Part shown: positions 44,135-44,573 of the stretch, piece after piece
Numbering within the stretch: position 1 is the stretch's first letter
How the letters are laid out: every line of letters starts with the position of its first letter
DNA from: Parcubacteria group bacterium GW2011_GWD2_43_10
GTDB lineage: Bacteria; Patescibacteriota; Patescibacteriia; Veblenbacterales; UBA10138
Assembly (NCBI GenBank): GCA_000995845.1
Contig: LCEZ01000003.1
Span: 1-47,078 of the forward strand
DNA: 47,078 nt
Direction: 5' to 3'
The notes under the pieces: model-generated
The model's database searches: none
The model's input: only the letters and a program-made list of their open reading frames with translations
What the model was told of the DNA's origin: nothing
Position numbers and translations under genes: made by a program

Positions 44135-44317
44135 TGGAGCCGGTGGTCGGGATTCCCCTGCGGGCCGGGGCGTCGCGGCGCTTGGGCGCATCGCGCCCGC
44201 CCGTTGCCGCGGCTCAAGCACAAGCAGTTGTGTTTTCACTTACGCTGCAACCCCACGACCTGCGCGTGGAGTTTATCCGCCGTAGGCGGAAATGCACTGC
44301 CCCGCCTGCCAATTGCC
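44135..44317 (-). other. 3' part of a Thr-like tRNA shell: anticodon-stem 3' strand, variable loop, T stem, ~88-nt GC-rich T-loop insertion, acceptor 3' strand and CCA
   Basis: The minus strand ends ...AATCCCGAC-CACCGGC-T-CCA. CACCGGC is the exact complement of GCCGGTG at 44431-44437. ACGCGCAGGTCGTGGGG (plus 44251-44267) parallels ACGCGTAGGTCGTGGG of tRNA-Thr. Confidence 0.6.
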
Positions 44318-44393
44318 TGGAGCCGAAGGTGGGATTTGAACCCACGACCTACGCGTTACGAATGCGTTGCTCTACCAACTGAGCTACTTCGGC
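44318..44393 (-). tRNA. tRNA-Thr (anticodon CGT), CCA encoded
   Basis: GCCGAAG-TA-GCTC-AGTTGGTA-GAGC-A-ACGCA-TTCGTAA-CGCGT-AGGTC-GTGGG-TTCAAAT-CCCAC-CTTCGGC-T-CCA. Canonical cloverleaf. Confidence 0.9.
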
Positions 44394-44437
44394 ACCCGGC
44401 GACTGGCGGGCAGGTCTACCAACTGAGCTACACCGGC
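44394..44437 (-). other. 5' part of a Thr-like tRNA shell (acceptor 5' strand, D arm, hairpin), ending exactly at nt 1 of tRNA-Thr
   Basis: GCCGGTG-TA-GCTC-AGTTGGTA-GACC-T-GCCCG-ccagtcgc-CGGGT. The first 24 nt are 21/24 identical to tRNA-Thr. There is no T arm. Confidence 0.6.
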
Positions 44438-44445
44438 TAAAAGGG

Positions 44446-44516
44446 AGCGGGTAACGGGACTCGGACCCGTCTCTCAACCTTGGGAAGGTCGCATAATACC
44501 CCTATACTATACCCGC
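44446..44516 (-). tRNA. tRNA-Gly (anticodon CCC), CCA not encoded, atypical T loop
   Basis: GCGGGTA-TA-GTAT-AGGGGTA-TTAT-G-CGACC-TTCCCAA-GGTTG-AGAG-ACGGG-TCCGAGT-CCCGT-TACCCGC-T. The T loop reads TCCGAGT (C at position 55). Confidence 0.75.
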
Positions 44517-44573
44517 CGGCAACTGCTACGGAGGATGGGGGAAGCTTACATACTGCCATTGTACTACACCCAC
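44517..44573 (-). other. Gly-like 5' tRNA half (acceptor strand, D arm, start of anticodon arm), ending exactly at nt 1 of tRNA-Gly. No 3' partner found.
   Basis: GTGGGTG-TA-GTAC-AATGGCA-GTAT-G-TAAGC-TTCCCCC... parallels tRNA-Gly GCGGGTA-TA-GTAT-AGGGGTA-TTAT-G-CGACC-TTCCCAA. Confidence 0.55.

Follow-up and report, generated by a model that had tools for sequence, protein, structure and literature searches.

A 47,078-bp contig from a groundwater Parcubacteria bacterium (Candidatus Veblenbacteria; GW2011_GWD2_43_10), referred to here as the window, carries a tRNA-Gly, a tRNA-Thr and a tRNA-Gln gene, each lying inside the broken remains, or shell, of another tRNA gene. Very small mobile cassettes, each bringing a replacement tRNA of its own, have very probably invaded tRNA genes again and again at the locus that holds the tRNA-Gly and tRNA-Thr genes, of which the present arrangement is the fossil. 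On this reading, the shells are what is left of genes that a selfish element of the "insert and replace" kind targeted and killed, and the element type is widespread in ultra-small bacteria of the Candidate Phyla Radiation (CPR). The reading draws on the nested topology, the empty and filled sites in relatives, a Gly junction defined to the nucleotide, cassette ends that are conserved and anticodons that match, the association of the Gln cassettes with a nuclease gene, and the decay of the shells. The Gly/Thr locus fills a 583-nt gap between a PpiC-type isomerase gene and ftsE, with a GC content of 0.6–0.7, far above that of the surrounding sequence. ARAGORN and Rfam called three tRNAs in the window (Gly, Thr and Gln), all of them inner genes; the shell pieces of both tRNA loci were not called as tRNAs even at relaxed Rfam thresholds, which returned only chance-level matches. 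Judging from their tRNA model scores (Table 1), the inner, or cargo, tRNAs are probably functional.

The Gly insertion could be read by comparison with orthologous loci, fetched via homologues of the two flanking genes and cited here by their L numbers. Empty and filled Gly loci were compared by direct string comparison, as MAFFT had matched the intact gene to the inner copies. In L011, the outer tRNA-Gly is complete but split, and its joined exons are identical at 73 of 74 positions to the intact gene of L027. The insert, located exactly between anticodon nt 35 and 36, measures 115 nt: an arm of 18 nt, an entire tRNA-Gly(CCC) of 75 nt that differs from the outer one, and a complementary arm of 22 nt; the insertion has no target-site duplication. 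The Gly shell of the window matches nt 1–34 of the uninterrupted L027 gene at 33 of 34 positions, the corresponding gene being intact in L027, L112 and L113, and shell and left arm together show 98% identity over 49 nt with the corresponding outer Gly and left arm in L011 and L109–L111. The partner of this left arm in L011, the right arm CTGCTACTGCGGAGG, has been lost from the window together with the 3' half of the shell, which was looked for there by reading the sequence. A preliminary description of the window had assigned 44573–44517 to a Gly-like acceptor strand, D arm and start of an anticodon arm, and 44437–44394 to a Thr-like 5' half. Intact relatives restrict the tRNA parts to 44573–44540 and 44437–44415, respectively, and show 44539–44517 to be the left arm of the Gly insertion and 44414–44394 an arm of the Thr insertion. 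The Gly arms differ in sequence from the ends of the Gln and Thr cassettes, though they are likewise complementary and helix-forming.

Comparison of the orthologous loci revealed clean, nested and layered states. The Gly site is empty in L027, L112, L113 and L108 and filled in L011, L109–L111, the window and L013; tRNA-Gly is thus uninterrupted in L027 and L108, and in L013 the inner gene is again a tRNA-Gly of the GCGGGTA type. L112 is a clean operon consisting of tRNA-Gly, TT and tRNA-Thr and nothing more, and both tRNAs are also clean in L113, the closest relative outside the species. The window-type tRNA-Thr lacks a 3' shell in L112, L027 and L026, with an 8-nt 5' fragment remaining upstream of it in L027. 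In L011, the tRNA-Thr type that serves as cargo in the window is itself the shell around a newer tRNA-Thr. Two successive 3' halves follow tRNA-Thr in L013, and a 3' shell is found within an inverted operon in L116. Three independent assemblies, L109 (515–760), L110 (1170–1410) and L111, contain two successive units of left arm plus 5' half before the working tRNA-Gly, one unit more than L011, which would reflect either re-invasion of the cargo or unequal crossing-over. As judged from these sequence states, the shells are therefore insertion-disrupted resident genes, present or absent by lineage and sometimes layered, and unequal crossing-over between repeats clearly reshapes the nested loci afterwards. 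As a separate observation, a 225-aa open reading frame (ORF) lies between the two clean tRNAs of L113 on the opposite strand (1454–2131, +); a Pfam search of the ORFs between these tRNAs found no family.

The Thr shell has a more complex structure. Its 5' remnant (44415–44437) is a 91% direct repeat of the 5' end of the inner tRNA-Thr (44371–44393), and 44252–44267 is a 94% direct repeat of 44341–44356. These repeats bear out the initial observation that tRNA-Gly and tRNA-Thr sit inside paralogous tRNA-like fragments, which belong to older genes of the same anticodon. The acceptor strand GCCGGTG (44437–44431) and the distant CACCGGC (44145–44139) are, as had been noted, exact complements 292 nt apart, and positions 44135–44154 are identical (100%) over 20 nt to the L012 shell. 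The outer Thr gene had been credited with its acceptor stem, T stem and CCA: the acceptor complement and the CCA are indeed there, while the T stem is now paired at 4 of 5 positions (GTGGG/CCGAC vs. GTCGG/CCGAC in L012). Anticodon-stem pair 27–43 is altered on both strands (G-C in the window, A-T in L011), and pair 28–42 becomes a wobble (T-G in the window vs. C-G in L011). An inverted repeat of 28 nt and 79% complementarity brackets the inner tRNA-Thr. The predicted minimum-energy fold of 44135–44437 (303 nt) has a closed outer acceptor stem and, within it, paired arms that enclose the inner cloverleaf, with a z-score of −3.8 and none of 100 shuffled sequences folding as well. The leader/trailer helix of the L013 Thr cassette has 13 bp.

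At its end, the left arm of the Thr cassette is similar both to CTTGCCCCGCC, the end of the Gln cassettes, and to CTCGCCCCGCC, that of the Thr cassette in L011; overall, the Thr ends read CCTGCCCGCC...GGCGGGGCAG in the window and CTCGCCCCGCC...GGCGGGGCAA in L011, both Gln-end-like. The position of the Thr insertion differs between lineages, falling in the D arm or in the anticodon region. The Thr shell of the window carries two further insertions, a mini-hairpin and a GC-rich T-loop insert. The mini-hairpin, of the form CCGCC-N3-5-GGCGG, is the single copy in the window and is kept in L011 and L013. L012 possesses the same Thr 3' shell with an uninterrupted T arm, GTCGGTTCAATCCCGAC, and 44248–44155 in the window is therefore a T-loop insertion, whose length is about 94 nt instead of the 88 nt first given. 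This insert is predicted to fold into hairpins, and BLAST found no homologue of it among all fetched loci. A part of it, CGGCAACGGGCGGGC, is complementary to the Thr cassette left arm, so that the insert may be the remnant of another cassette. Regarding expression, a promoter-like site does lie at 44589–44617, as proposed: its −10 box TATAAT is perfect, and L027 and L011 keep the same motif upstream of the operon. The consensus scan did not list the site because its −35 box TTGCTG matches the consensus at only 3 of 6 positions. The cassettes of the Gly/Thr operon share the promoter and the terminator region of the resident gene.

Table 1. Coordinates of the nested tRNA loci and associated features in the window
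Feature	Position	Strand	Basis
Promoter-like site of the tRNA operon: −35 TTGCTG (44617–44612), 17-nt spacer, −10 TATAAT (44594–44589)	44589–44617	−	Read from sequence
Gly shell, 5' remnant (nt 1–35) of resident tRNA-Gly(CCC), GCGGGTG type, ending at anticodon nt 35	44540–44573	−	String comparison with L027
Gly cassette left arm, CCCATCCTCCGTAGCAG followed by TTGCCG	44517–44539	−	Comparison with L011, L109–L111
Cargo tRNA-Gly(CCC), GCGGGTA type	44446–44516	−	ARAGORN; Rfam tRNA model, 53.3 bits
Thr shell, 5' remnant (nt 1–23): acceptor strand GCCGGTG, D-stem 5' strand, D loop, GA	44415–44437	−	Direct repeat of inner tRNA-Thr
Thr cassette left arm, CCTGCCCGCCAGTCGCCGGGT	44394–44414	−	Complementary to right arm 44301–44317
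Cargo tRNA-Thr(CGT), GCCGAAG type, CCA encoded	44318–44393	−	ARAGORN; Rfam tRNA model, 72.2 bits
Thr cassette right arm, GGCAATTGGCAGGCGGG	44301–44317	−	Inverted repeat with 44394–44414; L011 counterpart GGCGATCGGTAGGCGGGG
Thr shell resumption, GCAGTGCATT: D-stem 3' end, nt 26, anticodon-stem 5' strand, first loop bases	44291–44300	−	Aligns with L011 GCAACGCATT
Mini-hairpin TCCGCC-TAC-GGCGGA-TAAA in shell anticodon loop	44272–44290	−	Motif search
Thr shell middle: CTCCA, anticodon-stem 3' strand CGCGC, variable loop AGGTC, T-stem 5' strand GTGGG(G), TT	44249–44271	−	Aligns to L012, L011, L013
GC-rich T-loop insertion in Thr shell, ~94 nt	44155–44248	−	Comparison with L012
Thr shell 3' end: AATC, T-stem 3' strand CCGAC, acceptor 3' strand CACCGGC, T, CCA	44135–44154	−	Comparison with L012
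Terminator-like hairpin followed by T run, end of transcription unit	44098–44116	−	Terminator scan
Second nested locus: tRNA-Gln(TTG) (46794–46865) inside decayed tRNA-Gln shell	46686–46961	+	ARAGORN, Rfam, repeat search
Gln shell 5' part, with hairpin insert 46698–46714 in D arm	46686–46725	+	Repeat search
Gln shell 3' part, with T-loop hairpin ~46924–46941	46912–46961	+	Repeat search

The Gln locus of the window belongs to a larger cassette family that could be followed through strain variants. Two variants of the window's species, L009 and L010, carry another Gln allele in which the outer tRNA-Gln is almost complete and its D loop is interrupted by about 330 nt with the ends CTTGCCCCGCC...GGCGGGGTGAAG. 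The insert consists of a frameshifted small gene of the GIY-YIG nuclease family followed by the inner tRNA-Gln, and the outer anticodon loop holds a 26-nt cargo-free copy of the same two cassette ends; such cargo-free versions, of 20–26 nt, are present in shells. In the region 7880–8460, L009 is a recombinant whose left side corresponds to L010, including the GIY-YIG pseudogene, and whose right side corresponds to the window; the two sides meet at a crossover within the inner tRNA-Gln. For the Gln locus, several alleles are found side by side in one species. In the window, the inner tRNA-Gln has a 6-bp leader/trailer helix adjoining the acceptor stem, within a 21-nt inverted repeat of 90% complementarity; a second inverted repeat of 13 nt also flanks it, and 13-nt direct repeats (TTCGCTCAATAGT and TTCGCTCACTTGT) are located outside the inverted repeats. 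Within the window, the cassette motifs occur only in tRNA shells, with no dispersed copies, and no matches to them were found in the viral contigs of IMG/VR, which gives no evidence of a phage-borne element.

When the L009/L010 protein was used as a query, a genome scan returned 11 loci and a metagenome scan 422 relatives, of which the best 80 loci were fetched, a sampling that favours intact nuclease genes. Among the 11 genome-collection matches, the GIY-YIG gene lies 2–9 nt upstream of tRNA-Gln in all nine CPR loci, which come from Curtissbacteria, Saccharibacteria, Kerfeldbacteria, Paceibacterota and others; of the 80 metagenome loci, 74 have a tRNA-Gln that starts at the end of the GIY-YIG match. 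The junctions recur inside the outer tRNA-Gln, with TCTAA|CTTGCCCCGCC on the left in 72 of 85 Gln loci and GGCGGGGTGAAG|TAGGAC on the right in 64 of 85, placing the cassettes at one fixed D-loop position of the resident gene. The outer anticodon equals the inner one (TTG/TTG or CTG/CTG) wherever both are readable, except in L017; there, the otherwise intact outer tRNA-Gln (633–720) has TTA in place of TTG and would read the UAA stop codon if expressed. Leader and trailer of the cargo tRNA-Gln pair at 13.2 of 14 positions across 49 distinct loci (44 leader sequences), compared with 10.5 in mismatched locus pairs, and this predicted helix prolongs the acceptor stem of the cargo and covaries. At two Gln sites, the element has apparently taken the place of some two bases of the target (YG before G), a pattern that would agree with the staggered cuts of 2 nt reported for SegB and other GIY-YIG homing enzymes (PMC2330249).

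Other arrangements were also identified. In L096 (1160–1620) and L102, a cassette of nuclease plus tRNA-Gln(CTG) is situated 1 nt upstream of a complete second tRNA-Gln(CTG), in tandem and not nested. Outside the CPR, in L023 (1414–1800; Ignavibacteriae) and L024 (1154–1725; Bacteroidetes), a related small GIY-YIG gene is located just after an intact tRNA-Pro or tRNA-Ser gene and is followed by a duplicated T-arm/acceptor fragment of the same tRNA with a hairpin insertion in its T loop, an arrangement that is a 3'-replacement version of the nested-tRNA theme.

The nuclease of the Gln cassettes is a bare GIY-YIG domain (Pfam PF01541) of about 80 residues without a separate DNA-binding domain, in which Y16, G18, R27, H31, N32 and E63 are invariant (numbering of the first sequence in the family alignment). 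Its nearest solved relatives, both by sequence and by the fold predicted on database homologues (predicted local distance difference test score, 88), are the UPF0213 proteins and the nuclease domain of Slx1, an enzyme that cuts branched DNA. Homing enzymes of the I-TevI type were not among the top structural matches, and an NCBIfam search returned no model. The likeness to Slx1 and UPF0213 proteins, together with the location of all insertions in cloverleaf loops, would make a structure-guided cut at hairpin loops of tRNA-gene DNA an attractive mechanism. L009 and L010 have the gene as a frameshifted pseudogene, and the window lacks it.

Regarding the reading frame of this nuclease, none of the roughly 40 distinct ORFs that could be parsed (L014–L022 and L028–L107) has a stop codon ahead of the cargo tRNA. 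Most end in the cassette right end or at the TAG of the outer TAGGAC, and a few stop inside the cargo tRNA, for example at tRNA position 26 in L015 (1501–1773). Database gene calls of the family mostly have 105–140 amino acids (aa), compared with the domain of about 80 residues, in keeping with an ORF that runs on into the tRNA. Cleavage by RNase P, if it came first, would leave the nuclease mRNA without a stop codon.

The inner and outer genes have followed very different courses. Insertions of at least 6 nt were found in about 40 of 61 outer Gln 3' parts and in none of 85 inner tRNA-Gln genes. The shell insertions are mostly GC-rich mini-hairpins of the anticodon and T loops; in other loci (tRNA-Gln shells, other CPR phyla), CCGCC-N3-5-GGCGG hairpins are nearly always located just downstream of the inner tRNA. 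In the 14 outer Gln genes that carry no additional insertion, pairing is complete in the anticodon and T stems, and in five of these otherwise clean shells the acceptor strands mismatch each other; their 5' and 3' halves therefore come from different tRNAs. Inner and outer Gln genes are often only 58–81% identical, and the inner genes are the more uniform set, with one acceptor strand common to 25 of 49, which points to a cargo that arrives from outside. Taken as sequences, the shells are dead and unmaintained as tRNAs.

These observations suggest the following course of events. A cassette would be composed of a left arm, a complete tRNA with the anticodon of its target, and a complementary right arm, to which the Gln family adds the 80-residue stand-alone GIY-YIG gene just upstream of the cargo tRNA. 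Insertion would split the resident gene, between anticodon nt 35 and 36 in Gly, in the D-arm or anticodon region in Thr, and at the fixed D-loop position in Gln. We infer that the Slx1/UPF0213-like nuclease breaks an intact target and that the cassette copies itself in, by homing or transposition; the ORF-less Gly (115-nt) and Thr cassettes would move by means of a nuclease from elsewhere or by recombination. The primary transcript is predicted to fold as a tRNA within a tRNA, the resident promoter would transcribe the cargo tRNA, RNase P and 3' processing would presumably release it, and the cargo would take over decoding. The shell, freed from selection, could then accumulate mini-hairpin insertions, substitutions and deletions, and the nuclease gene would degenerate and then disappear, as it seems to have done in the window. 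A later invasion of the current working tRNA would add a further layer.

A bolder version of this scheme, which we put forward tentatively and rate a little short of an even chance, is a break-and-replace family of CPR mini elements. An Slx1-like nuclease would cut the loops of a particular tRNA gene, a hairpin-ended cassette would insert there and supply a foreign functional tRNA, and the host would become dependent on it, with the result that tRNA genes are replaced horizontally across phyla. The stop-less nuclease mRNA, contained in the tRNA-within-tRNA transcript, would be gated by RNase P, and the cargo-free mini-hairpins would be non-autonomous derivatives that survive only in dead shells.

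Four points weigh against the proposal of invading cassettes. First, no nuclease gene or remnant was found in the Gly/Thr cassettes when the window and nine relatives' loci (L004, L009–L013 and L025–L027) were screened with the GIY-YIG family by tblastn, with L108–L116 outside the screen; only the Gln pseudogenes of L009 and L010 matched. The search covered the Gly/Thr loci of the window, L004 and L009–L013, and those parts of them that L012, L026 and L027 contain. The link of the Gly/Thr cassettes to the GIY-YIG family is therefore indirect, and shared architecture and, for Thr, similar ends suggest it. Second, many Gln cargo tRNAs share the D-loop sequence of the target, so that a sequence-specific nuclease should cut its own cargo too. 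Third, the arrangement in L109–L111 could also be produced by unequal crossing-over between the repeated 5' halves and is no proof of a fresh insertion. Fourth, arms and mini-hairpin show 92–98% identity between lineages in which the PpiC proteins encoded next to them share only about 45%; judged by sequence, this conservation would fit either horizontal spread or some selected function.

Such a function is the core of an unlikely supplement to the cassette model, in which the shells are dead as tRNAs yet used in cis, either as homology arms for homing or as a tRNA-like handle by which RNase P, RNase Z or the CCA-adding enzyme would trim and stabilise the transcript of nuclease mRNA and cargo. 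The 92–98% identity of the arms across diverged lineages agrees with it, as do the outer 5' 15 nt that travel with the cassette, the several loci with halves from different tRNAs (a co-conversion-like pattern), the stop-less nuclease ORF, whose expression looks tied to tRNA processing, and the predicted folding of the whole unit as a tRNA within a tRNA. However, many shells are heavily decayed though the nuclease gene still looks intact, and the Gly and Thr cassettes have no ORF to express.

It is very improbable that the outer genes are functional, whether through a new kind of bacterial tRNA intron or, as had been suggested at the outset, through arm-paired shell halves that act as a split tRNA after excision by RNase P and RNase Z. 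In predicted folds, the entire unit is indeed enclosed by the outer acceptor stem, fresh outer genes without their cassette make perfect tRNAs (L011 Gly; L015 and L077 Gln), the Thr and Gln shells of the window have perfectly complementary acceptor strands and an encoded CCA, and the inserts sit in loops like those of archaeal multi-intron tRNA genes. Nevertheless, the shells are entirely absent in the close relatives L112 and L113, the Gly shell of the window has no 3' half, the acceptor halves are mismatched in the 5 of 14 clean Gln shells already mentioned, and the mini-hairpin insertions are confined to shells. Many shell anticodon loops are broken by hairpins and one has mutated to TTA. 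Since the outer anticodon equals the inner one wherever it can be read, the outer gene would add no decoding capacity, and since the mini-hairpins never occur in inner tRNAs, they are probably unspliced. There is no ribozyme core, and the junction helices, as read from the sequences and predicted folds, lack the geometry of a 3-nt bulge, a 4-bp helix and a second 3-nt bulge.

Random decay of tandem tRNA duplicates with unequal crossing-over and no mobile element, the null hypothesis of the preliminary description, is scarcely credible. Repeated 5' halves can recombine, L109–L111 and L011 differ by one repeat unit, L009 is a recombinant of two alleles, and cassette and tRNA stand in tandem in L096 and L102; yet a nested order of 5' half, complete gene and 3' half is not a product of tandem duplication, the Gly junction is exact against the intact orthologue, the same junctions recur in 72/85 and 64/85 Gln loci of different CPR phyla, the insert ends are complementary and, within the Gln family, conserved in sequence, inner and outer tRNAs at 58–81% identity are often no recent duplicates, and three independent assemblies with the same arrangement argue against an assembly artefact. 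A tRNA-targeting insertion with a replacement tRNA, the remaining one of three suggestions between which that description did not choose, is the one favoured by the empty and filled sites, the precise Gly site, the complementary arms and the matching anticodons.

The cassettes were also compared with the defining properties of known classes. Group I and group II introns were rejected: no intron family or ribozyme was detected at relaxed Rfam thresholds in the window loci, nor was one detected when 12 loci with cassettes were scanned at gathering thresholds, and apart from tRNA the cassettes matched no other Rfam family either. An anticodon-loop position of the insert, as in group I introns, applies to Gly (nt 35/36) and not to Gln (D loop), and for Thr it varies by lineage. 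An archaeal-type split tRNA does not correspond to shells that each contain an intact tRNA of the same anticodon and that are missing in relatives. Instead of bulge-helix-bulge motifs, the junctions and predicted folds display continuous arm helices with 1-nt or asymmetric bulges, although no dedicated motif search was made, and the defining features of a two-piece RNA of the transfer-messenger RNA type are lacking. Among the hallmarks of homing elements, the GIY-YIG catalytic domain is encoded in the Gln cassettes of relatives, as a pseudogene in L009/L010 and not at all in the window and the screened Gly/Thr cassettes, and presence/absence polymorphism occurs at a fixed site of a conserved target. 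An integrase-type element was discarded, as the cassettes of 115–400 nt hold only a tRNA with or without the GIY-YIG ORF and end in inverted, not direct, repeats; restoration of tRNA function, which is typical of integrative elements, would be provided by a complete cargo tRNA with the anticodon of the target wherever it is readable. Finally, small size and terminal inverted repeats (CTTGCCCCGCC...GGCGGGGTGAAG) recall miniature inverted-repeat transposable elements and GC clusters; the many dispersed copies of such elements have no counterpart in the window, and the Gly site shows no target-site duplication.

Mobile group I introns occur in the anticodon loops of bacterial tRNA genes. Additionally, phage T4 SegB is described as a free-standing GIY-YIG homing enzyme in a tRNA gene cluster (PMC2330249). 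The cassettes share with these homing-endonuclease elements the presence or absence at a fixed site, the decay of the GIY-YIG gene after fixation, an apparent co-conversion, and the association with tRNA genes. In contrast, they have neither ribozyme nor splicing, and harm to the host is avoided by the spare gene. Moreover, unlike the I-TevI type, their nuclease, known here from its sequence and predicted fold, is a bare catalytic domain of the Slx1/UPF0213 branch without a DNA-binding domain.

Engineered gene drives offer a further comparison. Synthetic cleave-and-rescue (ClvR) drives couple a nuclease, by which an essential gene is inactivated, to a copy of the gene that rescues its function. 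These drives are engineered constructs that work in trans, on a locus far away, and their rescue copy is recoded; in the cassettes, by contrast, it lies within the target, and nothing implies that the cargo resists the nuclease.

The closest published parallel is found in prophages and islands that integrate into tRNA genes. Phages of the vTRX32-1 group of Rhizobium interrupt tRNA-Leu and carry a complete replacement tRNA-Leu (PMC8631192). Like the cassettes, such phages and islands enter and destroy a tRNA gene and supply its function, with a replacement that may differ from the target (PMC8631192). They are, however, prophages of about 40 kb with a tyrosine integrase and short direct att repeats, in which usually only the 3' part of the tRNA is restored (PMC8631192), while the cassettes have 115–400 nt, inverted-repeat hairpin ends, no integrase, at most an 80-residue GIY-YIG nuclease, and repeated nesting. 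The preliminary description knew of no bacterial equivalent. This must be corrected for integrase prophages with a full replacement tRNA (PMC8631192) and stands for the integrase-free version of 115–400 nt: in the literature searched, we found no description of tRNA-carrying mini-cassettes nested in tRNA genes and no link of UPF0213-type nucleases to tRNA-Gln, and a miniature, integrase-free version of the prophage tRNA-replacement principle appears to be undescribed.

Two other systems resemble the nested loci in part. The rRNA genes of CPR bacteria hold non-intron insertions, neither group I nor group II, with GIY-YIG genes (PMC11270868). These are similar in that the same group of organisms carries GIY-YIG genes in non-intron insertions of structured RNA genes; they differ in being known from rRNA only, at several scattered sites and without a replacement gene, and tRNA genes and hairpin ends go unmentioned (PMC11270868). 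Disrupted tRNA genes of archaea, which comprise multi-intron, split and permuted genes as well as those with transposable tRNA introns, likewise have insertions in the D, anticodon and T loops, complementary leaders that join the halves, and a proposed link to mobile DNA (PMC4033280, PMC3293823). Their pieces, however, are the sole source of the tRNA and are joined by a splicing endonuclease and a ligase (PMC4033280, PMC3293823), whereas the shells described here surround an intact tRNA of the same anticodon and their outer pieces decay.

If the cassette model is true, selfish DNA would have a new means, and an extremely compact one, of settling in an essential gene, namely to bring a whole spare gene, in contrast to introns and inteins, which splice out, and to integrases, which rebuild the 3' end of their target. 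The model would provide a concrete mechanism by which bacteria of tiny genome size have their tRNA genes replaced horizontally, a candidate function for one or more subfamilies of the widespread and functionally uncharacterised stand-alone GIY-YIG proteins of the UPF0213/YhbQ type, a bacterial comparison for the origin of interrupted and split tRNA genes in archaea, and a natural analogue of engineered cleave-and-rescue gene drives. The annotation of CPR genomes is also affected, as gene callers extend the nuclease ORF through the tRNA and the loci seem to break metagenome assemblies. Contigs L012, L025, L026, L029, L043, L058, L062 and L076 end inside or right beside nested tRNA loci, where repeats and strain variation seem to break the assemblies. 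Elsewhere in the window, positions 31018–31397 (−) encode a bacterial class A RNase P RNA, with a full-length match of 216.7 bits.

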